Shown here one piece after another: positions 1,262-29,501 of a stretch of DNA of 29,501 bases. Both the position numbers and the translations under genes were made by a program. Below the pieces are notes generated by a model. That model was not told the origin of the DNA. It did no database searches and saw only the letters and a list, made by a program, of their open reading frames with translations. Within the stretch, counting starts at the first letter, position 1; each line of letters begins with the position of its first letter. Where the stretch lies: the IMG/VR virus record IMGVR_UViG_3300037462_000657, positions 1 through 29,501 of that record, one strand, 5' to 3'. The DNA comes from a virus (Duplodnaviria > Caudoviricetes).

Positions 1262-1497
1262 CGCTCACCTCCGAAGAGAGGGCCGAGATCCTCCGACACC
1301 GGCAGCTCTCCGCGCTCCTTCGCGCGGCGCTGCTCCTCGCGGCGGCATGCGGTGCGCCACGCCTTGTACGGCCAGTGGGATCGAGGCCCCCAGGGGTACC
1401 CCTCCCGGAGCGCCTTCCGCAGCTCCCCCACCGTGGCGCGCGGGTGCTGGGCGGCGATCTCGGCGACTAGCCTGCGGGCCTCGGCGCTCCAGTCCAT
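1258..1497 (-). CDS. Hypothetical phage protein (79 aa, YPWGPRSHWPYKAW motif)
   Basis: ATG at 1497 with GGGAGG upstream. MDWSAEARRLVAEIAAQHP... is the credible part of track ORF 1258..2112. Confidence 0.8.
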   Translation of the reverse strand: MDWSAEARRLVAEIAAQHPRATVGELRKALREGYPWGPRSHWPYKAWRTACRREEQRRAKERGELPVSEDLGPLFGGER

Positions 1498-1865
1498 AAG
1501 GCTCGCCTCCCTTCGAGCGCCGTGCGGAGCAGGCCCGCGGGGCTGGCGATCCGGCGGTCGCTGCGAAGCGCACCGATTCCCCGGTACAGGTGCGCCCGGA
1601 GGGCCTGCGGAGCATCGGTCCCGTGGCGCTCGACCACACAAGCCCAGTAGATCGGCGCGTACCTGCCCCCGAGGGTGGCCCAGCTGATCTCCAGCTCGCC
1701 CCCGGGGAGCGCGTGCGAGGGGGGCGGAGAGGGCTCCGCCAGCGACAGGGCCAGGGCCCAGCGGCAAGGAAGGGCGTAGGTGAGGGCGCCGGTCTTCTGG
1801 CGGATCCAGAGGAGCCAGGCCCGCTCCTGGGCGGAGAGGCGCAGGGTGGCGGGGGGCGCGATCAT
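1497..1865 (-). CDS. dndE: DndE-family (DNA phosphorothioation) DNA-binding protein homologue
   Basis: LRLSAQERAWLLWIRQKTG...PCRWALALSLAEPSPPP...EISWATLGGRYAPIY...LRAHLYRGIGAL follows the DndE pattern (RLS..K.KTG, CRWA..LSLAEP.PP, W.T.GG, HL.RGIG.L). ATG at 1865 is an ATGA overlap. End drawn at TTA 1499-1497; the standard code extends to TAG at 1467. Confidence 0.82.
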
Positions 1866-2314
1866 GCGGCCCCCAGGGCCAGCGCGGCATCGCAGCGGCG
1901 AAGGCGGCAGTAGGCCAGCCTGCCCTCGTGGGCGAGGGGACCCCCGCAGGCGGGGCACACGGGCGCGGGAGCAGGTCGGCGCCGGGTGCGCTGGTCGTGG
2001 CAGGCGTGCCGCGGGCAGTAGCAGGGGCGTGCTCCCACGGGGGGCGCGGGGGCGACCGGCTGATCGCACCCCCGGCGGCGACACGTTCGGCGCTCCGGGA
2101 GAGGCTGGGCAAACAGCCTCACCAGGGCCTCCCGGGTATCAGGCGAGACGCGGCCCCCGGTGTGCGCCCTCCGCAGCACGGAGTGCCCCGACAGGCCCGC
2201 GCGGGCCGCTACGGGCTGTAGCCCGATGGCCTCGACCCAGGCGGCGAGCTGGGCCCGCTCCCCGGGGGTGAGCGGGGCGCAGTCCTTCCAGCGGTGATTT
2301 TCAATCGTGATCAC
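1862..2314 (-). CDS. HTH-like plus Cys-rich zinc-ribbon protein
   Basis: GTG at 2314 (GTGA overlap). VAARAGLSGHSVLRRAHTGGRVS is HTH-like, followed by CRRRGC, CYCPRHAC, CPAC and CRLRRC. Confidence 0.7.
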   Translation of the reverse strand: MITIENHRWKDCAPLTPGERAQLAAWVEAIGLQPVAARAGLSGHSVLRRAHTGGRVSPDTREALVRLFAQPLPERRTCRRRGCDQPVAPAPPVGARPCYCPRHACHDQRTRRRPAPAPVCPACGGPLAHEGRLAYCRLRRCDAALALGAA

Positions 2315-3210
2315 GATCGCCTCCCCCGGGCCTGGTAGTGGCTCGGCTCGGGGCGCTCGATCTCGCCCCTCCTGGTCATCTGCGACAGGATCGATCCCAC
2401 CGTCGCTCTCCCCGACCCGATCCGATCGGCGATCTCGGCAGTAGGGAGCGCTCCCTTGTGCTCCGCCAAGAGGGCGAGGATCTTCTCTCGAATCGTCGCC
2501 GCCGGGGGCTGCCCGAGGGCTCGATCGCCAGCCTCGCGGGCGCTGGCCTCCAGTTGGGCGGAGCGGGCGCGGAGGTCGCGGGCGGTGTCCAGATCCCTTT
2601 TTGCAGCGCAGAGGGCGCGCCAGTCGGCGAGGGGGAGATCGAGAATCGCCCTCGCCAGCTCCCGAGGGCCGAGGGCGACAGGGGTGGGGGCAGCCTCGGC
2701 GGCGAGGGCGCGGCGCTGCCACTCGGCCCCGGAGGCGAGGGCGCGGCCAAGCTGCTCCCGGAGAGAGTCGCGCTCGGCGGCGAGGGCGTCTCGCTCGGCG
2801 CCGACTCGGGCGAGCTGGCGGCTCGCGTCGAGGAGGGCGTTCTCCTCCTTCGTCAAGGTCGCCCGGACGATCTGCTCCGGAGTAGGGGCCGGGGCCGGGG
2901 CGGGCGGGGGCGGCCTCACCGCTCGCACCGCGCTCACCGGGGGCGGGGTGGGAGAGGGCGAGGGCTCGACCGGCGGGGCCTCGGGGGCGCGCTGGACGGG
3001 GCGGTAGATCGCGGTGCCATCGGGGCGCTCCTCGCGCGAGGCGAGGCCCTCCGCCACCAGGGCGAGGGCGACCGTCTCGGCGGTCGAGGGGCCGATCGGA
3101 GGGCGCTGCCGCCGGGCCCACGCGAGGAGGGACGCCTCGCCCATGGCGGGGCGATCCTGGAGGGTTGTGAGCAGGGAGGCCCGAAGGGCGGCGCGGTCGG
3201 AGGGCTTCAC
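2311..3210 (-). CDS. Protein with Pro-rich linker, coiled coil and C-terminal winged HTH
   Basis: Heptad region AERDALAAERDSLREQL. C-terminus TAEIADRIGSGRATVGSILSQMTRRGEIER. Coupled overlaps. Confidence 0.78.
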   Translation of the reverse strand: MKPSDRAALRASLLTTLQDRPAMGEASLLAWARRQRPPIGPSTAETVALALVAEGLASREERPDGTAIYRPVQRAPEAPPVEPSPSPTPPPVSAVRAVRPPPPAPAPAPTPEQIVRATLTKEENALLDASRQLARVGAERDALAAERDSLREQLGRALASGAEWQRRALAAEAAPTPVALGPRELARAILDLPLADWRALCAAKRDLDTARDLRARSAQLEASAREAGDRALGQPPAATIREKILALLAEHKGALPTAEIADRIGSGRATVGSILSQMTRRGEIERPEPSHYQARGRRS

Positions 3211-3710
3211 GGCGCTCCTCCGGGCAGGGGTACCACCGGCACGGTGGCGCGTATCAGATCGGCGAGGGCGCGGAGGTGAGCCTCGGCGTCGCTGGCCCAG
3301 TCGGCCGTCTCAGAGGCGGCGTTGTGGCAATTGTTGGCGTTGTTACGTACGCGCAAGGCTGCTACCGCAGCGCTTTCGGCCGCGTCGTCGGCGTTTACAG
3401 CAATCGTGAACGCCTCTCCCCGTCGATCCTCGCCGCCCAGGGCCCACGCTTCGATCAGGTCGAGGGCATGGGCGCCCGGTTCGGACAGACGTGGGTCCGT
3501 TCGGGCACATCGGCACGCGACCAGCACCGCGCGACGGTGCTCGGGCGAGCCGTCGCCGGCCATCTCGGCCAGCCTGCCCAGGCACCAGGCCATCCAATGC
3601 CCATCGGTGCAGGCATCCCAGGCGGATTGGGGGTCGGGGTAGTCCTCGGCCCAGCACAGGGCGTCGTCGCACGCGCCAGCCTCGCGGAGAAGTTCGAGGG
3701 TCGTGGTCAT
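3207..3710 (-). CDS. Hypothetical phage protein (167 aa, ACxxAxxW...AWxxCxxGxWMxW type)
   Basis: ATG at 3710 (ATGA overlap). MTTTLELLREAGACDDALCWAEDYPDPQSAWDACTDGHWMAWCL. Confidence 0.78.
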   Translation of the reverse strand: MTTTLELLREAGACDDALCWAEDYPDPQSAWDACTDGHWMAWCLGRLAEMAGDGSPEHRRAVLVACRCARTDPRLSEPGAHALDLIEAWALGGEDRRGEAFTIAVNADDAAESAAVAALRVRNNANNCHNAASETADWASDAEAHLRALADLIRATVPVVPLPGGAP

Positions 3711-3919
3711 GATAGCACCCGTGGCTCGTCGAGCATCGTCGCGGCGAGGGCGAGGGCGGTCTCCAACCGGAGCCGCTCCAGGGAACTGGGGCGGCGCTGG
3801 AGGAGGCGCAGCGCCCCCTTGCGGAGGCACCGGACGGCGGCTGCTCGGTCGGCCACCGGGATTTGCCCGTGCTCGATCTGCACGAGCACGCGGAGGGGGT
3901 CGGGGGGCGTGGGGATCAC
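3707..3919 (-). CDS. Hypothetical protein (70 aa)
   Basis: Fits between neighbours with 4-bp overlaps. GGAGG upstream. Confidence 0.65.
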   Translation of the reverse strand: MIPTPPDPLRVLVQIEHGQIPVADRAAAVRCLRKGALRLLQRRPSSLERLRLETALALAATMLDEPRVLS

Positions 3920-4179
3920 GGCTTCGCCTCCACGAGGGCGCGGAGACGGTCACGTACCTGGTACGCGGCGTCCCAGGTGCTCAGGGTGCCATCGACCGTG
4001 AGGTATTCCCGGGCCGCGTCACGTAGGGCGTCGCGCTCGGCACGGAGGGCGTCGCGCTCGGCTTCGACCTGGGCGAGGGTGGCGAGAAGGTGGTGGACCC
4101 GGACATCTAGATCGATCTTGGTGGCAAGGCGACGGAGCCAGGCCAGGTCTTCGGTGGTGTAGGGGGCGTAAGCCATCAC
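3916..4179 (-). CDS. Hypothetical coiled-coil protein (87 aa)
   Basis: 4-bp overlaps. Contains an AERDALR tandem duplication. Confidence 0.7.
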   Translation of the reverse strand: MMAYAPYTTEDLAWLRRLATKIDLDVRVHHLLATLAQVEAERDALRAERDALRDAAREYLTVDGTLSTWDAAYQVRDRLRALVEAKP

Positions 4180-4415
4180 GCCACCCCTCCACGGGCCAGC
4201 CGGCGACGGAGGCGGCGGCGGCGCTTGGGGCCGATGTCCTGGCGGGCGAGGTCGGCGACGGCCTGGCTCAGGCTCATGGCGTGCCGGTCCGTGCGGAAGG
4301 CCGGGTCAGGCGGTGGGCGGCGCACCGGCTCCCGGAGGAGGGCGGCGTCCTGCGCGGTCTCGAACGTGGCGAGGAGGCTCGCCGTGGCGGCGAGGATGAC
4401 TTTCGTGTTGTTCAT
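4176..4415 (-). CDS. Hypothetical protein with Arg-rich C-terminus (79 aa)
   Basis: GGAGG then ATG at 4415. MNNTKVILAATASLL...PKRRRRLRRRLARGGVA. Confidence 0.7.
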   Translation of the reverse strand: MNNTKVILAATASLLATFETAQDAALLREPVRRPPPDPAFRTDRHAMSLSQAVADLARQDIGPKRRRRLRRRLARGGVA

Positions 4416-4498
4416 AGGGATCCTCCATAGGTGGCCGTCGTCGGCCTCGTGCTGCCGTCCTTGCGTGGGAGAGCGGCAACCCGCGACCGGCGAGGGTG

Positions 4499-4894
4499 TC
4501 AGACGGGCTTGTCGGCTTCGTCCAGGCGAGCGCTCGTCTTGGTGGCGATGACTCGGAAGATCCTGTGCAGGTCCGCCGGGATGTCGCTCCAGGTGAGGGC
4601 CTTGCGGTACGCGATCACACGAGGCTTCTCGCCCTCGCGGGCGTACTCCCGCATGTCCCCTCCGGCGAGCACCCACGCGGTCACGTCCCCGGCGAGCTGA
4701 AGAGTCCACTTGCTGTGCGACCACTTCCCGTTCTTCACGTAATCGTTTCGCAGCACCCGCACGGTCCCGGGGATTGAGTCCCCGGTGAACCGGACAACAG
4801 CCTCTCCTTGCTGGAGCCACAACAGAGGGCGCTCGCGGTTGCTCGCTCCGCCGTTCCCTGCCCACACAAGCTCATCGCTAAAATTGATCTGCAT
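4499..4894 (-). CDS. Hypothetical protein (131 aa)
   Basis: GGAAGGA then ATG at 4894. MQINFSDELVWAGNGG...KNGKWSHSKW has globular composition. Confidence 0.8.
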   Translation of the reverse strand: MQINFSDELVWAGNGGASNRERPLLWLQQGEAVVRFTGDSIPGTVRVLRNDYVKNGKWSHSKWTLQLAGDVTAWVLAGGDMREYAREGEKPRVIAYRKALTWSDIPADLHRIFRVIATKTSARLDEADKPV

Positions 4895-4976
4895 GATCGT
4901 GTCCTTCCTGGCCGTCGTTGGCCCGGCGCTGCCCCCGAGGCGAGGGCAGGGCGAGGCCCCCGAGGGGGCGAGAGGG

Positions 4977-5456
4977 TAAGAACGGAGCGTCCTGGTCGAG
5001 CGGCACGGGGTCCGGGGCGCGGCGCGCGCCACGAGCGGCCTTGGCTGCGCGGAAGGCGTCGCGGATGCTCGCGGCGGTGCCCGCGTCGACGGGCTTCGCC
5101 TCGCTGATCTCGTTGATGTACGCGACCCGCACCTGGACACGCTCGCGCCACTCCTCGTGGCGGATCACGATCTGGACGGGGCGCAGCTTCCCGGGGAGCT
5201 GGTCGGCGTGCTTCGCGCGGGCGAAATCCACCAGCGGGTCTTCGCCGTCGTAGCCGAGTGCGGCCAGGTCGGTGCTCACGCGGTCCACCGTCTTCTCGGT
5301 GAGCCAGCCGTACCAGTCGACGACCCGGCCCGTGTACTCGCCTTCGAGGATCTTGAGACCGAGCTTCACGAACGGGGTGCTCTTCGCGGCGGAGAGCCCA
5401 GTGCTCCAGTCGTGAACAATCGCCTTGCAACGGCCTTCGGGGATGATGTTTTCCAT
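4977..5456 (-). CDS. DUF669-like phage single-stranded DNA-binding protein
   Basis: MENIIPEGRCKAIV...LKILEGEYTGR..., adjacent to the AAA_24 ATPase, with acidic SSB-type tail DQDAPF. End drawn at TTA 4979-4977; the standard code extends 33 aa to TAG at 4878. Confidence 0.8.
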
Positions 5457-5473
5457 GATGTTTTTCCTTTCTT

Positions 5474-6352
5474 TCAGTTGTTCAGGGTGGTCTTGATGCG
5501 AGCCAGCACGCCCACGAGGGCGGCGGCGTTGGACGCGTGCTCGTCGCGGGCAGCGCGGGCCTTGGCGCGCTTGTCCTCGGGGAGCTGGTCGAGGAGCTGG
5601 TCGATCTCGGCCAGCAGGGCAGGGGCGCCGCGCACGTGCCCCCAGAGCGCAGCCCAGGAGAGCGGGAGCACCGGCGGGAGGCCGTGGCGGTTCTTCGCCA
5701 CGTGCCCTGCGGTCCACTCGGTATGCAGCACCCGCTGGCCGGTGCTGACGCCGCGCAAGCGGGGGCCGTCCTTGCGGGCCATCGCCTCGTGGGTGGCGTA
5801 GAGCACGGCGTCGCACCACTCGCAGATCAGGTCCGCTGCGGCCTGGTGGAGCTTGGGCGACCAGCGCTTCCAGCTGTCGAGCTCGGGGTCGCGGTGGTCG
5901 CGGGCGACGGCGTGGCCGAGAAGGATGACGTGCATCCCGCGCTTCGCCTGAAGCTGCTCCAGACGCGCCAGGAAGAGGCGCCAGGCGTCAACGGCGGCAA
6001 CGTATCCTTTGCCGTAGCCGAAGGCTTCGATATCGGGCTTCCCGGCGGCCTTGCACACGTGCGCCCAGCACAGCGGCTCCAGCCAGTCGATCGTGTCGAT
6101 CACCAGCGTCTTGAACGGGTGATCTTCCCGGGTGAGGGCGTCGACGGCCGCAAGCACGTCGGTCCAGTTCTCCGGGGTCGGGAACCGCTGCACGTCCAGG
6201 TGAGCCACGCCGTCCTCGGCGCAGAGGAACACGGGGGCCGGGGCATGGGCGCCGAGGGTGCTCTTGCCTACCCCGGCGTTGCCGTAGACGAGCGCGCGAA
6301 GCGGCCTGTCGGCGCGGCGAGAGGAAGAGATGGATGAAAGACTCAATCGCAC
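5474..6352 (-). CDS. AAA_24-family ATPase (Sak4-like recombination protein)
   Basis: Walker A YGNAGVGKST, Walker B TLVIDTIDW, GYGKGY and AKNR motifs. Start is GTG 6352 or TTG 6346. Confidence 0.9.
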   Translation of the reverse strand: MRLSLSSISSSRRADRPLRALVYGNAGVGKSTLGAHAPAPVFLCAEDGVAHLDVQRFPTPENWTDVLAAVDALTREDHPFKTLVIDTIDWLEPLCWAHVCKAAGKPDIEAFGYGKGYVAAVDAWRLFLARLEQLQAKRGMHVILLGHAVARDHRDPELDSWKRWSPKLHQAAADLICEWCDAVLYATHEAMARKDGPRLRGVSTGQRVLHTEWTAGHVAKNRHGLPPVLPLSWAALWGHVRGAPALLAEIDQLLDQLPEDKRAKARAARDEHASNAAALVGVLARIKTTLNN

Positions 6353-7708: not shown

Positions 7709-7869
7709 GGGATACAAGTATAAGCGTACTTGTGGGCCGGTCAACAACTTTCTACAAGCACGCTTGTAGATTCCCTCCTTACGCTAGGATCCATGCGGTA
7801 CGCGGCGGTTGGGCTACATGCGCTTCCTTTCGGGTTGACCAGGTACAACCATAAGCGTACTTATAGACC
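7709..7869. promoter_or_regulatory. Divergent promoter/operator region
   Basis: Relatively AT-rich. Leftward TTGACC(7744-7739)-16 bp-TATACT(7722-7717). Rightward TTGACC (7835-7840) with a weaker -10. Three 16-bp quasi-palindromes: TATAAGCGTACTTGTG (7719), TACAAGCACGCTTGTA (7753), CATAAGCGTACTTATA (7850). Confidence 0.8.
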
Positions 7870-12670: not shown

Positions 12671-12681
12671 CGCGCGGCCTG

Positions 12682-12960: not shown

Positions 12961-13006
12961 TCACAAGCGTAGTTTTGTGCTTACGCTTGTGCTATTCGTA
13001 CTTGAC

Positions 13007-13249: not shown

Positions 13250-13686
13250 CCAAGCGGAAGGGCGCCGCAAGCGGCGCAACAGGGGCCGAAACGGCGGCGG
13301 AAGTGATCTCCCTCCCGGGGCTCCCGCTGGCCGGTGAGCAGGCTGCGGTGGTGCTGGGGCTCAAGCTCACGGGCCAGTGGCACCACCGCTCAGCAACCTC
13401 GCTCGCGGCCCAGTGGGGCACAAGCGACACCTGGGTGCGGCAGATGGCCGTCCGGGTGGATGAGGCGCTGGAGCAGCTCGCCGGCCGGGAGCCGACCCGG
13501 AGGCTGGTGATGCACCAACTGCTCCTTGCGCTGAGCGAGGTGGACCAGATCACCGACGCCGCCAAGCGGGTCGCCGCACGGGTCAAGGTGTGCGGCGAGA
13601 TCGCCAAGGTCACCGGGCTGGTGAAGGGCGCCACCTTCACCCTCGGGGGGCCGCCCCCTCCGCTGACCGACGAGGCGCTGCGCTGA
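13246..13686 (+). CDS. Putative terminase small subunit
   Basis: HTH-like LAAQWGTSDTWVRQ plus helical region. Directly upstream of and coupled (TGATG) to TerL. Confidence 0.6.
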   Translation: MTKRKGAASGATGAETAAEVISLPGLPLAGEQAAVVLGLKLTGQWHHRSATSLAAQWGTSDTWVRQMAVRVDEALEQLAGREPTRRLVMHQLLLALSEVDQITDAAKRVAARVKVCGEIAKVTGLVKGATFTLGGPPPPLTDEALR

Positions 13687-15239
13687 TGGTCCGCAAGGCG
13701 CCCGTGGCCGCAGGGCCGCTCAGCCTCGAAGGGCTCCTCACGGGAACCCGGGGCTTCGGCTTGACCGGCGCCACGGCGGTGCAGCGGGCGGTCTGCCGCG
13801 TGATTGAGGGCGAGCCGCTAGGGGACCTGGCCGACCACCCCAGAGTGGTGCGCGCGCTCGGTGGCCAGGAGGCGGCGGCCTTCCTCGCCGCGCCGCCGGG
13901 GCGACCGCGCAAGGTATACAACGTCTCAGGGATCCGGGGGGCCAAGAGCCTCACGCTCGCCGCCGTGGCGACCAGCGCCAGCCAGCGCATCGACCTCAGC
14001 AGCCTCGGAGCCGGCGAGATCCCCCGGTTCTCGATCCTCTCGACCAGCCTGGATATCGCCCAGGTGAGCTTCAACGACCACCTGGTCGGCAAGATCATGG
14101 CCTCGCCCAACCTGAAGGCGCTGCTGATGGACGAGCCCAAGAGCGACTCGCTTTTGCTGCGCCACCCCTCGGGGCGCCCGGTGGAGATCAAGGTGGTCGC
14201 GGGCTCTCGGGCGGGCTCGACGCTGGTGGCCCGCTGGTCGGCGGGGCTCGCGGCGGACGAGGCCCCGCGCATGCACGGGGATGAGGCTGTGGTGAACTTC
14301 GAAGACAGCGTGCGCGCCGTGGAAGGGCGGCTGCTCCCTGCTGCACAGATCTTCGCTTGGGGCTCTCCCTGGGCGCCCGCGGGCCCGGTGTACGAGACCG
14401 TGATGGAGCGGTGGGGGCGGCCGGGGCTGGACCTGGTGGTGATCCGCGCGCCTGCCTACGACCTCAACCCGGTCAAGTGGACCCCCGAGGAGTGCGAGCG
14501 CATGCGCCGGGAGAACCCGGACGCCTACCGCACCGACGTGGAGGCCGAGTTTGCCGACGCTGACGCGGCGCTGTTCTCGTCGGTCGAGATCGAGCGGTGC
14601 ACGCGCCACGGGGCCACGGAGCTGCCCTACCGCCCCGGCCGCTCCTACGTCGCAGCGATGGACCCGGCGACCCGTGGCAACGCGTGGACGGTCATGGTTG
14701 GCCACGAGGAGGGGGGCCGCTTGGTGATCGACGCCGCGCGACAGTGGAAGGGGAGCAAAGCCGACCCGCTAGACCCGCGCGTTACCCTCGCCGAGATCGC
14801 GGCGTTGCTGCGCTGCTACCGGCTCGACGCCGCCGACACCGACCAGCTGGGGTTTGACTTCGTGCACGCGCTCGCCGCCGACGCCGGGCTCACCCTGACG
14901 CAGGTGGCCTGGAGCGCGAGTAACAAGATGCTCGCCTTCGATGCTTTGCGGCGTCGGCTGGCGACCGGCACGATCGAGCTACCACCGGACCCGCAGGTGC
15001 GCGCCGATCTCGTCGGCGTGCGCCGCCGCGTGACCACCAGCGGCGTACAGATTCACCTGCCATCCACGGGGGACGGCAGGCACAGCGATTACGCGCCACC
15101 GCTTGCGCGGCTGGCCGCCCAGAGCCTCGACGACGTGTTCGAGGAGCACCAGGAGGACCCATGGGAAGCACGAGCAGAGCGAGAGGCAGAAGCGCGCGAG
15201 GCGAGGCTGCGCCGGAGACGGGAGGAGGAGACGTGGTAA
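13686..15239 (+). CDS. terL: Terminase large subunit
   Basis: ATG at 13686. Walker A variant SGIRGAKS, Walker B LAADEA, coupling GSPW, EAEF, RNase H-like AMDPA and C-terminal HSD. Confidence 0.9.
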   Translation: MVRKAPVAAGPLSLEGLLTGTRGFGLTGATAVQRAVCRVIEGEPLGDLADHPRVVRALGGQEAAAFLAAPPGRPRKVYNVSGIRGAKSLTLAAVATSASQRIDLSSLGAGEIPRFSILSTSLDIAQVSFNDHLVGKIMASPNLKALLMDEPKSDSLLLRHPSGRPVEIKVVAGSRAGSTLVARWSAGLAADEAPRMHGDEAVVNFEDSVRAVEGRLLPAAQIFAWGSPWAPAGPVYETVMERWGRPGLDLVVIRAPAYDLNPVKWTPEECERMRRENPDAYRTDVEAEFADADAALFSSVEIERCTRHGATELPYRPGRSYVAAMDPATRGNAWTVMVGHEEGGRLVIDAARQWKGSKADPLDPRVTLAEIAALLRCYRLDAADTDQLGFDFVHALAADAGLTLTQVAWSASNKMLAFDALRRRLATGTIELPPDPQVRADLVGVRRRVTTSGVQIHLPSTGDGRHSDYAPPLARLAAQSLDDVFEEHQEDPWEARAEREAEAREARLRRRREEETW

Positions 15240-15430: not shown

Positions 15431-17220
15431 GGGACCGTGGCGAGACGCGCTGGTGGCGGGCCGAGGAGCGCCACCGGCTGACCGTGCTGCGGGCGGCGCT
15501 GGACGACGTGTACCGGTCGAGCGACCGGCGCATGGCGTCCTACGAGCGCGCCGTGCGGCTCTACCAAGAGAAGCAAGAGGTGGTGATCGGGCGCAACCTG
15601 GCCACCCCTGCACGGCTGGACTTCAACCTGACCGCGACACTGGCCTTGACGGCGCGCGCTCACTACGCCGAGTTCCCGCCCCCGCGAGCGGCGATCACCA
15701 CCACCGGCGGCCTGAGCGAGGTCCGCCAGCGGGGCCGCGCGCTCCAGAAGTGGAGCAGCGGCGCGGTAGCTACGACGAAGCTCGATAAGATCGTCAGAGA
15801 AACCGTCGCCGTACGATCGGCCCTGTTCGGTGACGGCGTGGTGCGGGTGGGCTCACGCTGGGGGCAGTTGACCGCAACGGCGGTGCGCCCCTGGGACCTG
15901 TGGGCGCACGAAGAAGACGAGCGCACCGGCGACCTCCGCAGCCTCTACTCGATCACCGAAGAAGACCGGGGCGTCCTCGCCCATCTGTACCCGGATCAGG
16001 CGAAGGCCATCGACGACACCGACGGCTATGGGCTCGTGCCCTGGTCGTCGCTGGGCAGGCTCTACAGCGGGCGCTCGCACCGGATCCCGGTGCTGGAGGC
16101 ATGGCACCTGCCGAGCGCACCCGACGCCGACGATGGGCGGCACGTGGTGGCGATCCAGGACCTGGTGCTCGTCGATGAGCCGTGGCAGCAGAGCCGGTTC
16201 CCGTTCACGTTCTGGGGCTGGCGTGCGCCGGTCGGTGGCGGCTTCTGGTCTACGGGCATCGCCGACGGCGTGGGCGAGTTCCAGCGGCAGATCGGTCTCT
16301 TGCTGCACCGGTTGCAGCAGGCAATCGACCTCACCACCAACCCCCGGATGCTTGCGCCGATCGCGTCGAAGCCGCGCCCTTGGCCCCCCACGAACGAAGC
16401 GGGAGGCATCCTCTGGTACCACGGCAACGTCCCTCCGGCGTGGGATGTGGCGCGTGCGGTCAGCCCCGAGATCGCCGCCCAGATCGAGCGGCTCTATTCC
16501 CAGGGGTTCCGCCAGGAGGGCATCAGCGAGATGGCCTCGATGGGCGTCAAGCCCGCGGGGCTCAACAGCGGCGAGGCCCTGCGCGTCTACGCGGACAAAT
16601 CCTCGGGGCGCCTCGCGTCGTGGACGCTGGGGGCGCAAGAAATGTACGTCGAGGTCACCGACCTCATGCTCGACGAGGCGCGTCGCCTCACCGAAAAAGA
16701 CCCTGACTTTTCGATTGTCTACGAGGACCAGGAGCAGGGGATCGTCGAGCGAATCCCGTTCCTCGACGTGGACCTTGAGCGCGACGCCTACGTGGTCCAG
16801 AAGGGCGCGGTCAGCAGCCTGCCCGAGAGCCCGGCAGGTCGCCGCGCGCTCGTGGCCGACATGCTCGCCACCGGGCAGATCGACCCGGCGCGGGCTGCGC
16901 GGTTGACCCGCGACCCGGACCTCGAAGCCGACGCCGACCTCGACGAAGCGCGCGTCACCTGGCTCAAGCGCACCCTGGAAAACATGCTGTTCGGCGACGG
17001 CGCCTACGTGCCGCCGGAGCCGATGGACGACCTCGTGAACGGCAAGGCTTTGATCGCTCAGTACTACGCCAAGGCGCGGGCCGAGGGCGTGGCCCCCGAG
17101 CGCCTTGCCCTGGCCCGCAAATGGGCCGCCGCGTGCGTCGCGCTGATGACGCCACCCCCAGCCCCACCCCCAGCCCCCGGCGCCGCGCCAGCGCCCCTAC
17201 CTGAGACGGAGATGCCATGA
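15427..17220 (+). CDS. Portal protein
   Basis: 597 aa after TerL. FGDGVVRV and GISEMASMG...SGEALR are typical of P22-like portals. Pro-rich tail. Confidence 0.85.
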   Translation: MRDRGETRWWRAEERHRLTVLRAALDDVYRSSDRRMASYERAVRLYQEKQEVVIGRNLATPARLDFNLTATLALTARAHYAEFPPPRAAITTTGGLSEVRQRGRALQKWSSGAVATTKLDKIVRETVAVRSALFGDGVVRVGSRWGQLTATAVRPWDLWAHEEDERTGDLRSLYSITEEDRGVLAHLYPDQAKAIDDTDGYGLVPWSSLGRLYSGRSHRIPVLEAWHLPSAPDADDGRHVVAIQDLVLVDEPWQQSRFPFTFWGWRAPVGGGFWSTGIADGVGEFQRQIGLLLHRLQQAIDLTTNPRMLAPIASKPRPWPPTNEAGGILWYHGNVPPAWDVARAVSPEIAAQIERLYSQGFRQEGISEMASMGVKPAGLNSGEALRVYADKSSGRLASWTLGAQEMYVEVTDLMLDEARRLTEKDPDFSIVYEDQEQGIVERIPFLDVDLERDAYVVQKGAVSSLPESPAGRRALVADMLATGQIDPARAARLTRDPDLEADADLDEARVTWLKRTLENMLFGDGAYVPPEPMDDLVNGKALIAQYYAKARAEGVAPERLALARKWAAACVALMTPPPAPPPAPGAAPAPLPETEMP

Positions 17221-18026
17221 CCGAAGAGACCACGACGACCCCCGAAGAGACCACCGAAGAGACGAGCGCCGAAGCACTAGCCGAGACGCCGCCGGCGGTG
17301 CCGAAGAAGAGCCCCTCCAAGCTGGTCGAAGGCATCAAGCGGCTGCGGGCCGAGCGCAACGCGTTGCGCGAGCAGCTGCAAGCCAAGGCCAGCGCCCCCG
17401 CCCCCGAGGGCCCGCAGATCGACGCGGCGCTCGCCAAGAAGAACCCGCTGGCGGCGCTGGAGAAGATCGGTCTCAGTCGAGCGGAGGCGATCGAGCTGAT
17501 CCAGCAGGAAGCCCTGACCACCGGTGCCCTCCCTCCGGCCATGGCCCGCGTGGCCCAGGAGATGCGTGAGCAGGTGGAGCGCCAGGAGAAGATCATCCGG
17601 GAGCTCCAGGAGCAGATCCAGGCACGCGAGGCCGAGCAGGTGTACGAGCGCGCCGTAGCCGAGCTGCGCAAGGAAGCCAGCGACGCCAGCAAGTACCCCG
17701 AGCTCGACGGCTACGATTGGGCCGTGATCGAGCAGGCGGCGGTGGACGCTGCGGCCTACTGGGACAAGGCCCACCCGAACAAGAAGGCCAGCGCGTCCGA
17801 CCTTCTGAGCCTGGTGAATCGTGCCTTCGCTCAGCACCACGAGACGGTCAGCAAGCGGGCCGCGAAGAAGGCCCCTCCGCCCCCCGCGCCACCGGCGACC
17901 GTTTCCCCCCCTGCGACTCGCAAAAAGCCCGAGCTTCCGCCGGTGACCCCGGCGGGTCGTCCAGGCAAGGTACGCATGCCCTCGCGGGCCGAGATTCGCG
18001 CGAGGGTTGAAAAGGCCGTGGGCTGA
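17217..18026 (+). CDS. Capsid scaffolding protein
   Basis: Acidic, Thr-rich N-terminus and coiled coil. Lies between portal and capsid. Confidence 0.75.
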   Translation: MTEETTTTPEETTEETSAEALAETPPAVPKKSPSKLVEGIKRLRAERNALREQLQAKASAPAPEGPQIDAALAKKNPLAALEKIGLSRAEAIELIQQEALTTGALPPAMARVAQEMREQVERQEKIIRELQEQIQAREAEQVYERAVAELRKEASDASKYPELDGYDWAVIEQAAVDAAAYWDKAHPNKKASASDLLSLVNRAFAQHHETVSKRAAKKAPPPPAPPATVSPPATRKKPELPPVTPAGRPGKVRMPSRAEIRARVEKAVG

Positions 18027-18034: not shown

Positions 18035-18156
18035 GCTCACCACGGACGCTTGGCGTCCGGTTCGCCGCCAGCCCCCGGCGCCGTCTCAGTCGGCAAACGC
18101 TGCCCGCCCCCGCGCGGATCGCCCAGCGACCTTGACCCTCGACCTGGAGACGGCCC

Positions 18157-19443
18157 ATGGCCCTCGGTCCCGAAGACCTGATTTCCGCAGCGAACAGCCT
18201 CAAGAGCGTCTACAGCCCCGAAGAACTCCTGCTCATCATCTGCAAGAAGCGCCCGTTCATGGCCGCGCTTCCGATGGTGGACGACTTCGAGGGGAAAACT
18301 TTTGAACATACCGTGCAGCACGGTTACAACCAGAGCGCCGGCCCAACCGTGGCCGTCGCGCGCAACACGATCAGCACGAACGCCGAAGAGCGTTTTGTGC
18401 TCCAACGGAAACAGTACTACGGCTACGGCAAGATCAGCCGCGAGCTGATGCTCGCCACGCGCTCGAAAAAGGGCGCCGTGGCGAACAAGTACAAGCAAGC
18501 AACCGACATGATGATCATGTCGCTGGGTCGCTTCCTCGACTATTCGGTCTGGGGCAACGGCGGCGGCGCGTACGGTCGCCTTGCTGCCGTCGGTGTCGCT
18601 GGCGGCTTGCTCGCCACCCAGGTGCGCCTCGCCAACCCGGCGATGGCGCAATGGCTGGAGAGCGACATGCAGGTGCAGTTCAGCCAGAACACCGGCTACG
18701 GCGGTGTCACCACCGTGCGCCAGCCCGGCGGCGGTGCGGAAGGCTCGGCTGCCACCGGCATCACGCTGACGATCCTCGCGGTCAACAAGCGTACCGGTCT
18801 GATTACTTTCACCACCAACGTTCCCGTCGGCGCTGGCGAGGTGACGCTGAACGACTACCTCTTCCGGCGCGGGACCAAGGGCCTCACGCTCGACGGCGTG
18901 CGCGGCTGGATCCCGCAGGACGACGCGACCGCGGTGCTGAACTACCTCGGCGCTGTCCGCAGCCAGAACACCGAGCGCCTCTCGGGGCACCGGTGGACCG
19001 AGGGCGCGGGCACCTACGCCGAGACCATCCGCAAGGCGTGCGCGCACTTCGCCAACATGGGCACGGATGCGTCGAACATTTACATGAACCCCATGTCGAT
19101 CGACGAGATCGAGGCGTCGGAGCGGCAGCGTGTCGTGACCGTCGATGTGGGCGATCTCGAGATCGGCTTCGAGACCATCAAGTTCAAGACGGCCATCGGT
19201 GACCTCGACCTTCAGAGTGAGCCCGGGGTGCCTCCCGGTTGGGCCTTCGTGACCAACCCGGGCTCGTGGGCGTTCAAGCACCTGGGCAAGATGATCGGCT
19301 TCTTCGAGGAGGACGGCCTTCTTCACCGCGTGCCTGGCGAGGACAACTACGATTTTGAGGCCGGCGGCTACGGCAACCTGATCTGCGAACTGCCCGGCAA
19401 CAGCGGTTGGATCAAGCTCGATCCGGCGGCGCAGGACTTCTGA
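18157..19443 (+). CDS. Major capsid protein
   Basis: 428 aa after the scaffold, GGAG RBS, strongly biased codon usage, HK97-fold-like composition. Confidence 0.85.
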   Translation: MALGPEDLISAANSLKSVYSPEELLLIICKKRPFMAALPMVDDFEGKTFEHTVQHGYNQSAGPTVAVARNTISTNAEERFVLQRKQYYGYGKISRELMLATRSKKGAVANKYKQATDMMIMSLGRFLDYSVWGNGGGAYGRLAAVGVAGGLLATQVRLANPAMAQWLESDMQVQFSQNTGYGGVTTVRQPGGGAEGSAATGITLTILAVNKRTGLITFTTNVPVGAGEVTLNDYLFRRGTKGLTLDGVRGWIPQDDATAVLNYLGAVRSQNTERLSGHRWTEGAGTYAETIRKACAHFANMGTDASNIYMNPMSIDEIEASERQRVVTVDVGDLEIGFETIKFKTAIGDLDLQSEPGVPPGWAFVTNPGSWAFKHLGKMIGFFEEDGLLHRVPGEDNYDFEAGGYGNLICELPGNSGWIKLDPAAQDF

Positions 19444-19445
19444 CC

Positions 19446-20059: not shown

Positions 20060-20060
20060 G

Positions 20061-24100: not shown

Positions 24101-24213
24101 CCCTTACCGGCTCGTCGCTCGATGAGAGCGGGACCCTGGAGCTCTACGGGATTGACCTCGAAGTCGGGCAAAAACGCGGGCGAAACAAGGTCACGGCGGA
24201 CAACCGGAGGTAA
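21154..24213 (+). CDS. Tail nozzle/hub protein (P22 gp10 / tail tubular B analogue), 1019 aa
   Basis: ATG at 21154. N-terminal GGL...ENLRYD.G.LKKRKG, beta-propeller-like repeats (WQNRLW, IGCVDARSV, VWDYLRSAW), GFQRLWR. Confidence 0.78.
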   Translation: MALQKIRVPVLIRGGLAQDREDVALGLGEGFVTMENLRYDRAGVLKKRKGHEAVSNEGFRGLSSLPTGQIRSLHTYRGAIVAAMGFNDPILATHTAVGWSQHGLACPLSMRRRALLRVTEKPVAAAQTVVVGPYTIVVYRVDTFLFYKQILTSTGAVLQDDRRLQDDCSQHRAFAVGDDVVVVYWNNLDNELRAFRLKPNLGSPVVQSAELTLEINPITFPFDGCAAQEAGQFYVAWVPFRTGVRVIKCSIGGLPLDAPTVVAGPLTHADIDAVSLHAVVHESSNRLWVSFARFNGGVADIRLGRWNAAPFALAGVGTVYTDPTAVATSARTVCSPGGWVGWEQIPGDDGGGAILLDAGGGSPGARVRVRELFQSRFFRRAGADWIFLGEDGSYALVRLDQGEDLPPVHTYHGAICWREAIPTPIAAPLADVCVSGTQAWRWGALVLTGIPSTASAVPAGRSGVDLVDLDYFIDQAPVNLATERANCLTFGGAMAPIFDGAQVVESGFFRPPTIRAAVPSAGGGGAIEGGDVAPGQPFVYLYRAVYEWQDARGNWHYSEPSQPVAVQIGSALPLARVDLEVTCLALTRRGDLAGFLGRRARVALFRTLKNTTGPYYRIDDPNVTTYANERNSAVVFPDDGLSDAALLATGFGQLYTTGGVLESQLAPPALALAAWQNRLWLVSGEDPRVVCYSKEILPGEAPQFHRTQLFVQIEEEATAVAAAGPVLLIFSRTRTHALSGLGPAMTGALADWRGPTVVSETIGCVDARSVVTFPGGTLFLAEKGFHLLTSPQAPPAFVGGPVQAITDEYTVCRAAAHDPENGRVLWVMARASVTAPSVIVVWDYLRSAWFAWTAGGTSDNRYPRALAVLDGATWYANNATVLRQSDTATGDGGEYFSWRLRLPWVRLQGITGFQRLWRVVVALKRSAGVKVLTILRSDDSDAADQTAEHNLAALAAEANGRLQLETHVVQQKGRSAQVELVEALTGSSLDESGTLELYGIDLEVGQKRGRNKVTADNRR

Positions 24214-24214
24214 C

Positions 24215-24901
24215 ATGCTCCCTTTGATTTTGGCAGGCGCAGGGCTCGCGGCGGCGGGCGGAATCGGCGCGGCGACCTCCGGGGCGCTGGGCAAGGGGCG
24301 CCAGCCCGACCGCGCGGCGTATGACTTCAACTATCGCCCCGAGTTTGACTGGGCAAAGGCCGACCAAGCGCTAGACCAGCAGCGCGCCGCCGGCGGCGGC
24401 ATGATGTCCGCTGCGGAGCAAGCGCGCGCCGTGGCCGAGGGGCGCGCGGGGCGCACCCTGGCGCAACAGCAGCTCGCCGCCGGGATGGCTGCGGGAGCGC
24501 AGGCCACGGCGCAGACCGCCGCCAGCGCTCGCGGGGGGCCGGCCCAGGTGGCGCAGGCGCAGCGCATGGCGCAGGCGCAGCAGGTCGAGGGGCAAGCGCA
24601 GCTCGCTCAGGCCGCGGGGATGCAACAGGTGGCCGAGAGCAGCGCCGCCTACCAGCGCGAGCTCGCGGCGCTCCAAGGCGCGGGGCAGCTGGCCAGCGTC
24701 GAGCGCCAGGGCTCGCAGATGGAGCAAACGGCACGCGTTGACGCTGAGATGGCAGCGGCGCAGGCACAGCAGCAGGGCGCGATGGCCTACGACCAGACCG
24801 CGATCGGCGCGGACCAGAGCATGCGCAAGCGGCGCGGCGAATTCTTTGGCAAGGTGATGGACTTCGGCGGCGGCGCGGCGATGAAAGGGATCGCCGGCTG
24901 A
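24215..24901 (+). CDS. Putative DNA ejection/pilot protein (Gln/Ala-rich)
   Basis: GGAGG then ATG at 24215. Gly/Ala hydrophobic N-terminus followed by Q/A-rich helices. Confidence 0.7.
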   Translation: MLPLILAGAGLAAAGGIGAATSGALGKGRQPDRAAYDFNYRPEFDWAKADQALDQQRAAGGGMMSAAEQARAVAEGRAGRTLAQQQLAAGMAAGAQATAQTAASARGGPAQVAQAQRMAQAQQVEGQAQLAQAAGMQQVAESSAAYQRELAALQGAGQLASVERQGSQMEQTARVDAEMAAAQAQQQGAMAYDQTAIGADQSMRKRRGEFFGKVMDFGGGAAMKGIAG

Positions 24902-27207
24902 TGCCCACATACCAGACCTACGAGCGGCTGCCCGATGGGCGCGTCAAGCTCACCGACGCCGACGGTGGGGCGCTCACGCTCTTGCCTTCGCCTTCGGTGG
25001 ACCAGCAGATCGCCCAGATCGACGCGCAGCGCACGGCGACGCCGGCCCCGGTGCCTGACGGCATCGTCGCCGCCGAGAGCCCGAAGCTGAGCGACACGCG
25101 GGCCTTCATCCCGGTGCCGACGCCGCCAGCCGCGCCGGCCCCCGAGGCCGCTCCGGCGGGGCTTGCGCAAGCCTCTCCGCTGGTCGGCGTAGCACCGGCG
25201 CCAGCGCCCCCCGTGGCCCCCGCAGCGGCGCCAGCGCCGGCCCCTGCCGCCGCCCCCGGAGAGCCGCCCAAGATCGTGCGTGGCGGGCAGCCCGTGGCCT
25301 CCCAGACGCCGGGCTCGGTCGCAGCGAACCTCTACGCGCAGGCCGCCGAGCGAGAGCTTACGGGGAGCCCCGGAACGTTTGTCCCCGGAGGCACCTTCAA
25401 AACGGGCGCGACGCAGCAATACAGCCCCGGTCCGGACCCGATGGCCACGCTGGCGCGCGAGGCGGCCGAGAAGCGCCTTGCCAACGTGCGCAGCGACCTC
25501 GCGTACCTCGAAGGGAACGCGGCGACGCAGCGCGCGGAGCTTGCGGAAGCGGAGGCGCAGCGCGCCGCCGCGAGGCAAGCGGAGATCGAGCAGCTTCAGG
25601 CACGTCAGGCGGAAAAGCTTGGCGGCGTGCTGGGCGAGATCGACCAGAAGCGCAAGGAAATCGCTGACGCGAAGCTCGACCCCAACCGACTGCTCCGGAA
25701 CATGAGCACGGGGCAACAAGCGCTCGCGGGTCTGGCAATGGTTTTTTCTGGGCTGGGCAAGGCGCTGGCCGGTGGCGACGGCCCGCCAATGGCTTTCGCG
25801 GTGCTGGACGAGGCGCTCAAAACCGACCTGCAAATGCAGCAGCTCGCGGTCGAGCAGAAGCGCGGCGAGATCAACACCCTGGGCGAGATCTACAAGCTCA
25901 CCAAGGAGCAATTCGGCGACGAGCGCATGGCCATGGACGCCGCGTACCTCGCCGGGCTGGAGACCTACAAGGCCAAGATCGCGCGCACCGCCGCCGAAGC
26001 GGAAGCGGCGATGGGCGTCGAGACGCAGTACGACGAGAACGGGCAGATCGTCCCTTCGTCGCCCTACAGCGTGCGAGCGAGGGAAGCCCTTGCGCTCCTG
26101 GAGGCCGAGCAAGCACGGCTGCGTGAGCAGCTGTCACAGGCCGCCAACGGGCAGGTGGCGCAGCAGTACCAGACCACGCAGGATAAGGTAGTGGGGGGCC
26201 GCGCGCCGAACCTCACCAAGGCCGCTGAACTGCTGGAGAAGGCAGAAAAAGCCGGCGGCGCCGGAGGCCAGCAGGTCACCTACGAAGGGAAAAAGTACCG
26301 GCTTGGGAGCTTCGTCGAGGACGGCGAGGGAAAAACAATCCGCAAGGAAATCGGGGATATCGAGGTCCTCAAAAAGGACATCAGCCTTCTCGAAAAAGAG
26401 CTGCGGGATCACCCGGTGGACAGCAAGACCTTCAACAAGTCGAAGGTCAAAGGGCTGATGGAGCGCGTGTCCAGCAAGGCGAACGTCGTGCTGGGCCAGG
26501 GCGCCAAAAACAACGACGAAGCCGCGCGGTGGGAGACGATCCTTGGCGGCGTGTTGACCAACGGTGTTGGCGCCGTGCAAGACATGTTTCGCTGGGCCGA
26601 CGACCAGGCGCGAGCGAAGCTCGACCAGGTGAACGCCACGCCGGCCACGGCGGCGTCACCGGTGCGTGTCGGGGCGCGTGCGCAGGCTGCTGCGGAAGGG
26701 CGCGCGTTGCCCGGCGGCGGTGGCGTGGTGGGGGCTCCTCGCGCAGCGCCTCCCGCGCCCGTGGTGCGTGCGAGCGGCGTGCGAGCGACGCCGCTGGACC
26801 GCGCCGGTGCCTCGCTCGTGACCGCGACGCAGGCCACGGATCCGGTGGCCCGGGGCAAAGCCGTCGGCGTCGCCAAGGCGGCAATCCGCGACAGCGTGAA
26901 CGCGAGACAACTCGGGCCCCGCGAGGCAAGCGTAGCGATGCAGCTGGCCGAGGCCGGGGACATCGACGGGCTTCTCTCGTTCCTGTCGAGGATGCGCGGC
27001 ATCGATTCGGTGAGGCCGTCGGAAGAGTCGTTCCAGCGGCAGGTCAGCGCATCGCTTCTTCGTCGTGAGCTGGAGCGCGCAGGCGCCGCTACTGATGCCG
27101 CGCTCCGCTCCGGCCCCGCCGTGGCTTCGGTCACCACCAAGGTCAAGGGCGGGGCGCCGACCATCAAGCCCATCAAACCCGTCAACCTCAGCGGGAAGGC
27201 CAAATTA
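24901..27207 (+). CDS. Putative internal virion/ejection protein (768 aa to TTA)
   Basis: TGATG start, Pro/Ala linker and long coiled coils. End drawn at TTA 27205-27207; the standard code adds 54 shadow-like residues to TGA 27369 inside the next gene. Confidence 0.78.
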
Positions 27208-29501
27208 TGGCCGACCCCGCGCGCACGATCACGGTCTACGGCCCCGACGACCAGCCCGTCGAGGTGGCGGCGTCGGAGGCCGCGAGCCTGCTGCGCTCGG
27301 GGCAGTATGGTCTTGCCGAGAACGCCGCGATCCCGGTGCAGAAAGCTGACGGCTCGTGGGAGACCGTGAGCGGCGCCGAGGCCGTGGCGCGGGCGCAGAG
27401 CTTCGCCACGCGGCTCGGGACTGAAGCGGACGTACGCGACGCAGCGCGCGAGGAGGAGTTCCGCGGGCTGGGGATGAAAGCGCTGGCCGCAGGGACCGGC
27501 GTCGTGGACTCGCTTGCGCTGGGCGCAGGCGACGCGCTGCTGGCCAAGGGGGCCGACCTGGTAGGGCGCGGCGGCGAGTTTCGCCAGTTCGTCCAGGACG
27601 CCGATCGCTTCGCGCCGGGCTCGCGCATGGCGGGGCAGGCCGCGGGCTTCGTGGCCCCGCTCCTGGCCACCGGGGGCAGCAGCGCCGCGGCGTCCGGGGC
27701 CAGCACCGCAGCGCGTGCGGCGCGGGCCGTCACCGCGCTCCCACGGGCCCTGACCGCCGTGGCCGAGGGGGCCGGCGGCATGGCCGCTCGTGCGGTCGGC
27801 GGCGGGCTCCCGGGGCGGTTCGTGGCCCCGGTCGTCGGGCAGGCCCTGGAGCTCGGTGTGTACGGCGCCGGGCAGGGGCTGAGCCGCACCGTGATCCGCG
27901 ACCCCCAGGCCGACGGCGAGGCCCTTGCCGCAGCGATGGGCAGGGGCTTCTTGAGCGGCGCCCAGGTAGGGGCGAGCTTCGGCGGGCTGTTCGGCGCCGG
28001 GAGCGTCGCGGTGGGCCTGGCGGGGCGGGGGGCCGAGCGCGTGGCCGAGGCGGGGCGGGCGCGGCTGGCCAGCGTGCTCGACACCGGGCGGGGACTGGAG
28101 CAAAGCCTTGCGCGGGGCGAGCTGCCGGCGGTGCTGGGCGAGCGCGTAGGGCAAGGGCTCGACCGGGCGACAGAGCTAGCGGAGCAGGTCACCGGGCGCA
28201 GCGCACCCGCGGCGGAAGGGCTTGCGGGGAAGGCAGACCGTCTCGCGCGCACCGTGATCGACGTAGACAAGGCCGCGATCGAGAAGGCATTTCAGAGCAC
28301 CGGCGCGACCGACAAGATTTTGCAGAAAGCTGAGCGGCTAGGCAGCTCACGCGAGATCGCGGCGCGGCAGATCGTCGAAGAGCTGCCACGGCTGGCGGGC
28401 AAAGACGGCAAGGTGCTCACCTTCGCCGAGCAAGCGGAAGCGGCGCTGAAGCTGCGGCGCGAGGTAGGCGAGCGCGTGGGCGCGTCGCTCGACCGACTGG
28501 AGGCCACCGGGCAGAAGATCGAGATCGCCACGGTGGTCACCAAGGCGCAGAAGGAGGTGGTCGAAAACCTCAAGAAAATCGCTGGTGCCGAGAGCTACGC
28601 GGGGCGCGTAGAGGACTACCTCGCCTCGCTGGAGAGCAAGGCCACCGAGGGGCGTATGACCCTCAAGGAGTTCCACGGCCAGCGCTCGTTTCTCGATGAC
28701 ATGGTGTTCGAGGCGAAGGCCAGCAACAGCCCGGCGCGCAAGGCGCTGGAGCGCGTGCGCGGCATCATGGAGGAGACCTTCGAGGCGACGGCCGCGAAGG
28801 CTGCGAAGGAAGCCGGGAGCGACGCCGCTGCCGCGTACAAGGCTGCGAAGGCGGAGTACCGCGCAGCGAAGTGGGTGGAAGAAGCGACGGCGAAGGGCGC
28901 CGGGCGCAGCAACGCCAACCGCGCCATCGGCTTCTCCGAGCAGGTAGGGGCGCTGACCGGCGCGGTGCTGGGGGGCGGCGGGATCACCGGGCTGGCGACC
29001 AGCGTGGCCAGCGCCGCCGCCAACCGCGCGATCAAACAGGTTGGAGATCAAACGACCGCTGCGGTGCTGCGCGAGATGCAGCTGGGCAAGCCGCTGGCCG
29101 AAGCCGTGGCGGACGTGAGCCGGCGCAATCTGGGCGACAAGATTGACAGGTTTTTCGAGCTGTCGGCGCCGGTGCGCGAGCGCGGGGCGTCGCTGCTCCG
29201 TCGTGGCCGAGAGCGCGCGGCAGACGCCGCCAGGGCGACCGGCGACGCCGTGACGACGGTGGGCCGGGCGGTGGGCCGGGGGGCGCAGGCCACGGCGCGG
29301 GGAGCCGAGTACGGGGCGCTCGTGGCGACCTTCAACGACCGGCGCCGGCAGGTGATCGAGGCGCGTGCGGGCGGGCCTACGCGGGCGGCAGAGGTGGCGC
29401 TGCGCTACCAGCGGGCCGGCGCCTCCCCCGAGGCCGCAGAGGCCGCCGCGCGCACCCTGATGCGCGGGGCGGACCTGCTGGCCGCGCGCCTCCCTCCGGT
29501 G
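27207..29501 (+). CDS. Large Ala/Gly-rich internal virion/ejection protein (runs off window edge)
   Basis: Missing from the ORF track because no stop is in the window. GGAAGG then ATG at 27207, MADPARTITVYGPDDQPVEVAASEAASLLRSGQY..., open with high GC3 to the window end. Confidence 0.82.
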   Translation, partial: MADPARTITVYGPDDQPVEVAASEAASLLRSGQYGLAENAAIPVQKADGSWETVSGAEAVARAQSFATRLGTEADVRDAAREEEFRGLGMKALAAGTGVVDSLALGAGDALLAKGADLVGRGGEFRQFVQDADRFAPGSRMAGQAAGFVAPLLATGGSSAAASGASTAARAARAVTALPRALTAVAEGAGGMAARAVGGGLPGRFVAPVVGQALELGVYGAGQGLSRTVIRDPQADGEALAAAMGRGFLSGAQVGASFGGLFGAGSVAVGLAGRGAERVAEAGRARLASVLDTGRGLEQSLARGELPAVLGERVGQGLDRATELAEQVTGRSAPAAEGLAGKADRLARTVIDVDKAAIEKAFQSTGATDKILQKAERLGSSREIAARQIVEELPRLAGKDGKVLTFAEQAEAALKLRREVGERVGASLDRLEATGQKIEIATVVTKAQKEVVENLKKIAGAESYAGRVEDYLASLESKATEGRMTLKEFHGQRSFLDDMVFEAKASNSPARKALERVRGIMEETFEATAAKAAKEAGSDAAAAYKAAKAEYRAAKWVEEATAKGAGRSNANRAIGFSEQVGALTGAVLGGGGITGLATSVASAAANRAIKQVGDQTTAAVLREMQLGKPLAEAVADVSRRNLGDKIDRFFELSAPVRERGASLLRRGRERAADAARATGDAVTTVGRAVGRGAQATARGAEYGALVATFNDRRRQVIEARAGGPTRAAEVALRYQRAGASPEAAEAAARTLMRGADLLAARLPPV

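Follow-up and report, generated by a model that had tools for sequence, protein, structure and literature searches.

Does TTA, an ordinary leucine (Leu) codon, act as a stop signal in a tailed phage? This question is raised by the IMG/VR record IMGVR_UViG_3300037462_000657 (G000), a linear virus sequence of the Caudoviricetes (Duplodnaviria) that CheckV rates as 34% complete and that was analysed here over its whole length of 29,501 bases, hereafter called the window. A first-pass annotation of the window had suggested that TTA (UUA in the mRNA) closes three genes, namely a DndE-like, an SSB-like and an ejection-like gene, and the comparative evidence obtained in this study at orthologous gene ends supports that suggestion. 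Since TTA sits where related phages have ordinary stops, it is likely to be a fourth stop signal; we put at roughly 0.7 the probability that TTA replaces TAA or TGA at the gene ends of this phage family, with UUA read as a stop, likely by a host factor. That the proteins end at TTA appears highly probable from the aligned sequences.

The 38 genes of the window, set by hand, comprise 9,617 inner codons, and their 942 Leu codons are distributed as CTG 419, CTC 366, CTT 82, TTG 50, CTA 22 and TTA 3. This recount agrees with the first-pass annotation, which had reported only three in-frame TTA codons, each at the end of one of the genes named above (Table 1). With TTA taken as a stop, TGA ends 30 of the 36 closed genes, TAA 3, TTA 3 and TAG none, and the gaps at the three TTA junctions are -1, -1 and +82 nucleotides (nt). 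With TTA taken as Leu under translation table 11, the ends of the open reading frames (ORFs) produce gene overlaps of 31, 17 and 163 nt, the same values as had been reported before; the largest overlap at the 33 junctions following standard stops is 10 nt, and both of the TAG ends seen in the window with table 11 belong to run-on tails. The four TGATG junctions previously cited as equivalents of TTATG are all present, and a fifth was added from the minus strand.

The window has a GC content of 70.6% and holds 19 TTA triplets on the plus strand and 17 on the minus strand. The number of inner TTA codons expected from CTA usage and the TTG/CTG ratio is 2.6, giving a probability of about 0.07 for finding none, and bacteria of similar GC content showed 2 TTA in 66,432 codons and 2 in 37,955 codons. 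It is the position of the three TTA codons, not their rarity, that goes beyond chance. Two neighbouring codons retain their meanings in the window: TTG is used as Leu at 50 inner positions, and TCA is used as serine (Ser) 14 times. Inside the alignments of relatives, TTG occurs 46 times.

Table 1. Positions in the window of the genes, TTA codons and control junctions discussed in the text (aa, amino acids).
Feature	Position	Strand	Details
79-aa gene	1258..1497	-	ATG shares the A of TTA
TTA in DndE-like gene	1497-1499	-	codon 123 of 133 under table 11; gccTTAtgg; A shared with next ATG (TTATG)
DndE-like gene	1497..1865	-	PF08870 (Pfam), E 5e-14; 122 aa with TTA as stop, 132 aa under table 11
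TGATG control junction	4178-4174	-	fifth junction, added in this study
TTA in SSB-like gene	4977-4979	-	codon 160 of 193; ttcTTAccc; directly after ...DQDAPF
SSB-like (DUF669) gene	4977..5456	-	159 aa with TTA as stop; beside Sak4 and exonuclease
TGATG control junction	13684..13688	+	likewise at 19845, 21152 and 24899
Scaffold-like gene	17217..18026	+	TGA end in window
Putative major capsid gene	18157..19443	+	TGA end in window
Ejection-like gene	24901..27207	+	768 aa with TTA as stop; label from gene order, no family match
TTA in ejection-like gene	27205-27207	+	codon 769 of 823; aaaTTAtgg; TTATG with next ATG
Next gene (MADPART...)	27207..29501	+	open at record end; ATG shares the A of TTA

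The clearest DNA-level evidence comes from the ejection-like gene. Its junction with the MADPART... gene, whose orthologues are 51-70% identical to the window protein, reads TTATG in the window and in G810, TAATG in G001 and TGATG in G811. In this way, one orthologue carries TTA where another has TAA or TGA, in many cases within an NNATG overlap of stop and start, and the alignment of homologues proposed by the first-pass annotation shows TTA coinciding with TAA or TGA at both the DNA and the protein level. Among the 30 homologues of the ejection-like protein, 23 stop at or before the basic tail, and the seven that run on all have Leu in the slot: six read L-W, as TTA-TGG gives, and one reads L-R in the other frame. 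The run-on tails of these homologues measure 61-114 aa, compared with 54 aa in the window, and such a range (54-114 aa) on one protein indicates that no tail is kept among them. On a quick tree of 31 rows, calculated without bootstrap, the run-on state must change at least 6 times, and every one of these changes is imposed by branches whose Shimodaira-Hasegawa-like approximate likelihood ratio test (SH-aLRT) value is at least 95; the state is scattered rather than clustered. If stops had been lost at random, an all-Leu outcome would have a probability of 1.6e-3 with 4 independent events and 6e-5 with 6, assuming that the five one-base sense neighbours of TAA and TGA that keep the third A are equally likely.

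The SSB-like gene gives comparable evidence at the protein level. Its label rests on DUF669, which matched 7 of the 9 members of the alignment; no PDB sequence match was obtained with that alignment. SSB proteins whose acidic tail ends in Phe depend on that C-terminus being free. Six of the eight homologous clusters (71-81% identical) are 158-159 aa long and end in ...DTPF, the slot at which the window reads ...DAPF-TTA, and a more distant homologue (P0008, 51% identical) reads DAPF-L followed by helix-turn-helix-like sequence. P0009 is only partially related to the gene. P0008, of which the protein alone is available, is probably a database fusion arising from a TTA stop.

TTA gene ends also occur in relatives at genes for which the window uses TGA. 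The terminal codon of the scaffold-like gene is TGA for the window and G001 but TTA for G810 and G811, where the next standard stop follows after 605 and 5 codons, respectively. The distant capsid homologues of G002, G003 and G004 are near-identical proteins that all finish in LTGIS-TTATG, and past this point their frames would stay open for 42, 42 and 102 codons, respectively; at this capsid slot P0113 stops and P0111 has Leu. Another pair of orthologous ends reads ...PGLWRRR-TGA in G002 and ...PGLWRRK-TTATG in G004. For six records (the window, G001, G002, G004, G810 and G811; 53,210 codons), genes were called with a simple caller that was trained on the window and scored TTA as neutral, and the resulting gene ends were 14 TTA, 187 TGA, 18 TAA and 3 TAG. 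Under table 11, four of these records contain 6 in-frame TTA codons, 4 of which are terminal and 2 upstream of a likelier ATG. Within 52 alignments to five relatives, TTA occurs at none of 1,898 Leu codons, a count of low power given that about 0.9 were expected; the conserved internal TTA that the first-pass annotation had advised looking for was thus not encountered in the phages. Concerning the finer structure of such ends, G002:22524-23300 and G004:6856-7632 each finish in TTA, and the likely GTG start of the next gene lies five bases upstream (GTGCCTTA), giving an 8-nt overlap. TAG is nearly unused as a stop: none of the window's 36 closed genes ends in it, and across the six records it closes 3 of 222. 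Sampled GC-rich bacteria use TAG often, for example 119 TAG vs 209 TGA in one scan.

As controls, 16 loci of more distant Sak4 phages were found to carry 61 in-frame TTA codons, 47 of them internal, and the four TTA codons in called genes of G725 (capsid 26% identical) are used inside genes; six other GC-rich control loci have no in-frame TTA at all. The TTA-stop trait is thus confined to part of the phage family. Concerning cultured relatives, the capsid and ejection proteins had no match among 50,697 phage records and Sak4 matched only at 30-40%. Viral scans with the SSB alignment and the terminase gave no match, and a metagenome scan gave 2 loci.

Based on this evidence, termination at UUA is probably a matter of codon reading by a host release factor. 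The host would be without a working tRNA-Leu(UAA), and its RF2, which normally reads UAA and UGA, would also accept U at the second base; the chain would then be released at UUA, after which the ribosome would start again on the AUG that overlaps it. With TTA so scarce at about 71% GC, codon capture would be possible. RF2 is preferred as the reader in view of the codon usage, with TTG still Leu, TGA the main stop and TAG hardly used, and also because, in the available portion of PMC12574857, organellar stops at UUA alone or at UYA are tied to RF2-type factors and stops at UUR to RF1-type factors. We consider it reasonably likely that a GC-rich free-living bacterial lineage, together with this podovirus-like phage family, uses UAA, UAG, UGA and UUA as stops by means of a naturally retuned RF2. 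Such a bacterial code would have been missed so far because code-inference tools cannot call stops; according to the accessible part of the KACI preprint (10.64898/2026.04.02.715157), neither Codetta nor KACI infers stops directly, and a change of CGA to a stop in two archaeal assemblies is raised there only as a possibility.

The code itself is known from organelles, and a bacterial or phage case was not found in print. The labyrinthulean (Thraustochytrium) mitochondrial code is NCBI table 23. Stop-to-sense recoding occurs in phages and bacteria, with TAG as Gln and TGA as Trp or Gly; those codes are likewise non-standard but run in the opposite direction, since here a sense codon becomes a stop. 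Cases involving TGA are listed in the part of bioRxiv 10.64898/2026.04.02.715157 that was available. The available portion of PMC12574857 describes UUA as a stop in labyrinthulean mitochondria and UUA/UCA as stops in peDinoflagellate plastids. The resemblance to the present case lies in UUA at 3' ends where homologues stop, in UUG remaining Leu and in an RF2-type reader being proposed, whereas here the setting is a tailed phage of a probably GC-rich bacterium, TCA stays Ser, and both a release-factor change (Ser204 in that portion) and the tRNA loss are only predicted. The mitochondria of Marsupiomonadales and Pseudoscourfieldia, in which UUA/UUG are stops via mtRF1a (PMC12574857, same portion), share with our case a Leu-to-stop change that includes UUA, but both UUR codons stop there and TTG is Leu 50 times in the window. 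The Streptomyces bldA system and its phage Hau3, as far as covered by the accessible text of PMC10732093, resemble it in having a very rare UUA with a special translational role in a GC-rich host-phage system; there, however, UUA is Leu inside genes or the start of a bypassed gap, while here it replaces stops at gene ends. Our literature search, for which subscription journals were mostly outside coverage, found UUA as a stop in organelles only (mitochondria and plastids). By term look-up, the available texts of Codetta (PMC8629427), gTranslate (PMC13695967) and KACI (10.64898/2026.04.02.715157) do not mention UUA, nor do those of gTranslate and KACI mention TTA, and PMC12574857, in its accessible part, calls its plastid sense-to-stop case the first outside mitochondria.

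Several observations weigh against UUA being a host-read stop and are considered together here. At about 71% GC, the lack of internal TTA is weak evidence. The Leu codon of the run-on ejection homologues was seen as DNA for P0088 (= G810) only and deduced from the protein in the other six of seven, and on shuffled trees the run-on state needed a mean of 7.3 changes, with about 80 of 500 reaching 6. Two of the 14 TTA ends in the six records are uninformative, having a standard stop 3-5 codons on; G001 has no TTA stop in 24 kb, and G002 and G004 are near relatives of each other. The record is a fragment, so that a phage factor may lie beyond it. The DndE-like gene appears to be the weakest of the three cases because its C-terminus is not conserved: nine of ten clusters of homologues are 117-120 aa long, compared with 122 aa to the TTA of the window, and the tenth includes 130- and 145-aa forms with different tails. 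The case therefore leans mainly on the TTATG overlap. As a separate observation on this gene, its product belongs to a DNA phosphorothioation family and stands in the window without any other dnd gene; close homologues recur in the related phages G002-G004, and it is possibly a DNA-binding or counter-defence protein.

The search for the host also weighs on this side, as a host with a TTA-stop code was not found among the sampled genomes. The host may well be GC-rich and myxobacterium-like, and the best links are weak, consisting of replication genes 29-58% identical in a 'delta proteobacterium' metagenome-assembled genome (MAG) and a 'Myxococcaceae' MAG. When 185,579 genomes were searched for prophages, the DndE alignment yielded 0 loci and the helicase yielded 9 loci at 28-46% (L043 sharing 6 genes and L045 sharing 2), none of them with TTA stops. 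DNA was sampled from 56 genomes of the groups around two myxobacteria-like MAGs, mostly as 2-40 kb, with 80 kb for G316, 300 kb for G146 and 440 kb for G022; the TTA-stop pattern was absent from these small samples of large groups, which showed internal TTA or no informative TTA. GC-rich genomes without in-frame TTA in a 20-kb sample stay possible hosts. The few 'stop-like' flags raised in the samples seemed, judging by their immediate context alone, to stem from antisense frames, from noise in the calls or from positions 1-12 codons short of an ordinary stop.

The release-factor data from bacteria point in the same direction. A strict tRNA-Leu(TAA) pattern, which also misses true copies, was found in 289 of 401 genomes of the phylum around G007, and in a ten-genome group without this pattern, five members use TTA as Leu. 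The Ser of the RF2 SPF motif is intact in 109 of 111 pattern-negative genomes (78/80 and 31/31), the other two giving no match, and the search of 401 class-level genomes for SPF changed to G/C/W or A/T returned noise only. We also considered the position RR[HQ]T-x-F, which may correspond to Ser204 of the organellar study. Ala occupies it in 166 of the 401 genomes: in 122 of the 289 that have the tRNA pattern and in 44 of the 112 that lack it. G022 has Cys there in its RF2 (RRHT-x-F), retains tRNA-Leu(taa) and is free of TTA stops over the 440 kb sampled; TTA is nearly absent from this genome. Neither Cys nor Gly occurred at this position in any of 141 order-level genomes, and RF2 was not found in G291 and G295. 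These data indicate that no release-factor change tracks a TTA-stop code in the sampled genomes. Apart from this, a divergent RF2 loop (VRMSPFNAD...) was noted in G146, G316, G311 and G321, and TTA is still an internal Leu codon in G146 and G321.

Other explanations must be set against the same evidence. If UUA were unassigned or 'hungry', the ribosome would stall and the chain would be freed by rescue (ArfB-type, ArfA with RF2, or drop-off), so that the protein would still end at TTA. This would fit sampled genomes without a diagnostic RF1 or RF2 change and the near absence of TTA in the GC-rich relatives of the suspected hosts, and pausing at rare UUA codons is documented in Streptomyces in the accessible text of PMC10732093. 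Stalling is nevertheless rather unlikely, as TTA closes abundant structural genes (the capsid gene in G002-G004 and the scaffold-like gene in G810 and G811) and takes part in tight TTATG couplings. It also weighs against stalling that rescue systems generally act on truncated mRNAs and that a product tagged by tmRNA is degraded. It is very unlikely that TTA is simply Leu, with tolerated stop-loss mutations leaving junk tails on the proteins. Every TTA is indeed one base from TAA or TGA, long forms exist in databases (P0001, P0021), and all bacteria sampled are compatible with the standard code; random loss, however, would also give K, Q, E, S, R and G, whereas Leu is found in 8 of 8 ejection run-ons (counting the window), in 2 of 2 SSB run-ons and in the capsid cases, and the tails vary from 54 to 114 aa, or from 42 to 102 on near-identical capsid proteins, with one of 605 codons.

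Regulated recoding in the manner of bldA, in which bypassing or frameshifting at UUA would fuse a gene to its neighbour or time its expression, has a precedent proposed for the terminase of Streptomyces phage Hau3 (PMC10732093, accessible text), and the next ATG adjoins two of the three TTA sites. This seems highly improbable here: instead of a single interrupted protein, the homologues form distinct genes that have normal stops at the slot, the SSB site has an 82-nt gap and no adjoining gene, no significant RNA structure was detected at the three sites (z -1.54, +1.01 and -1.38), and TTA lies in different genes of different relatives. There is likewise only a slim chance that UUA becomes a stop in a standard-code host through a phage factor encoded beyond the fragment, which could be a release factor or a nuclease that targets tRNA-Leu. 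The incompleteness of the record and the samples without a TTA-stop host would agree with such a factor, but G004, a record rated complete (36.8 kb, with terminal repeats), carries three TTA ends, of which two have no counterpart in the window, and genes of the early region (SSB-like and dndE) end in TTA too. As for TTA having been made from TAA or TGA by sequencing or assembly error or by base editing, this is hardly credible. The G000 sequence is present in one wetland metagenome run, and the Logan contigs of run X1 (depth about 12) show 0 differences over positions 1000-6000 and 22000-29481, covering all three TTA sites. The first-pass annotation had asked whether reads would show TGA or TAA there; at the contig level, TTA stands at these sites. 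The contigs come from one run only, possibly the source, and their agreement argues against an assembly slip only; still, the two assemblies are identical letter for letter, TTA gene ends recur in five other IMG/VR records (G002, G003, G004, G810 and G811), and error would also create internal stops and frameshifts, none of which were seen.

If UUA is indeed a host-read stop, free-living cells are able to surrender a sense codon for use as a stop, and a natural release factor with a new specificity would make the rules of second-base reading testable. The finding would also bear on models of codon capture in GC-rich genomes and would imply a host-range barrier, since the proteins of any phage that has TTA inside its genes would be cut short in such a host. 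Standard gene calling misannotates such genomes, and run-on forms are already in the protein collection (P0001, P0008, P0081 and P0111).

With respect to gene content, the leftward arm of the window carries methyltransferase, DndE-like, Sak4 and exonuclease genes, and the rightward arm carries Cro-like, MazG, helicase, VRR-NUC, primase-polymerase, terminase and SU10-type adaptor genes; the capsid, scaffold and ejection labels are putative, being taken from gene order. None of the 38 window proteins matches a release-factor family, and no tRNA, tmRNA or Rfam match was found in the 29.5-kb record. The adenine methyltransferase gene continues past the record end at its 3' side, where (positions 1-240, minus strand) it is built from near-identical repeat units of about 60 nt. 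The divergent promoter region at 7710-7870 contains two related AT-rich motifs with TTA (minus-strand 7723 and 7854), which are possible operator sites in a window that has a Cro-like gene and no clear CI; the TTA at 7723 is in frame, five codons ahead of the ATG at 7708, and would exclude an upstream TTG start. Finally, an AT-rich gap of 336 nt with short repeats (12670-13007) follows the primase-polymerase gene and is possibly a replication origin.

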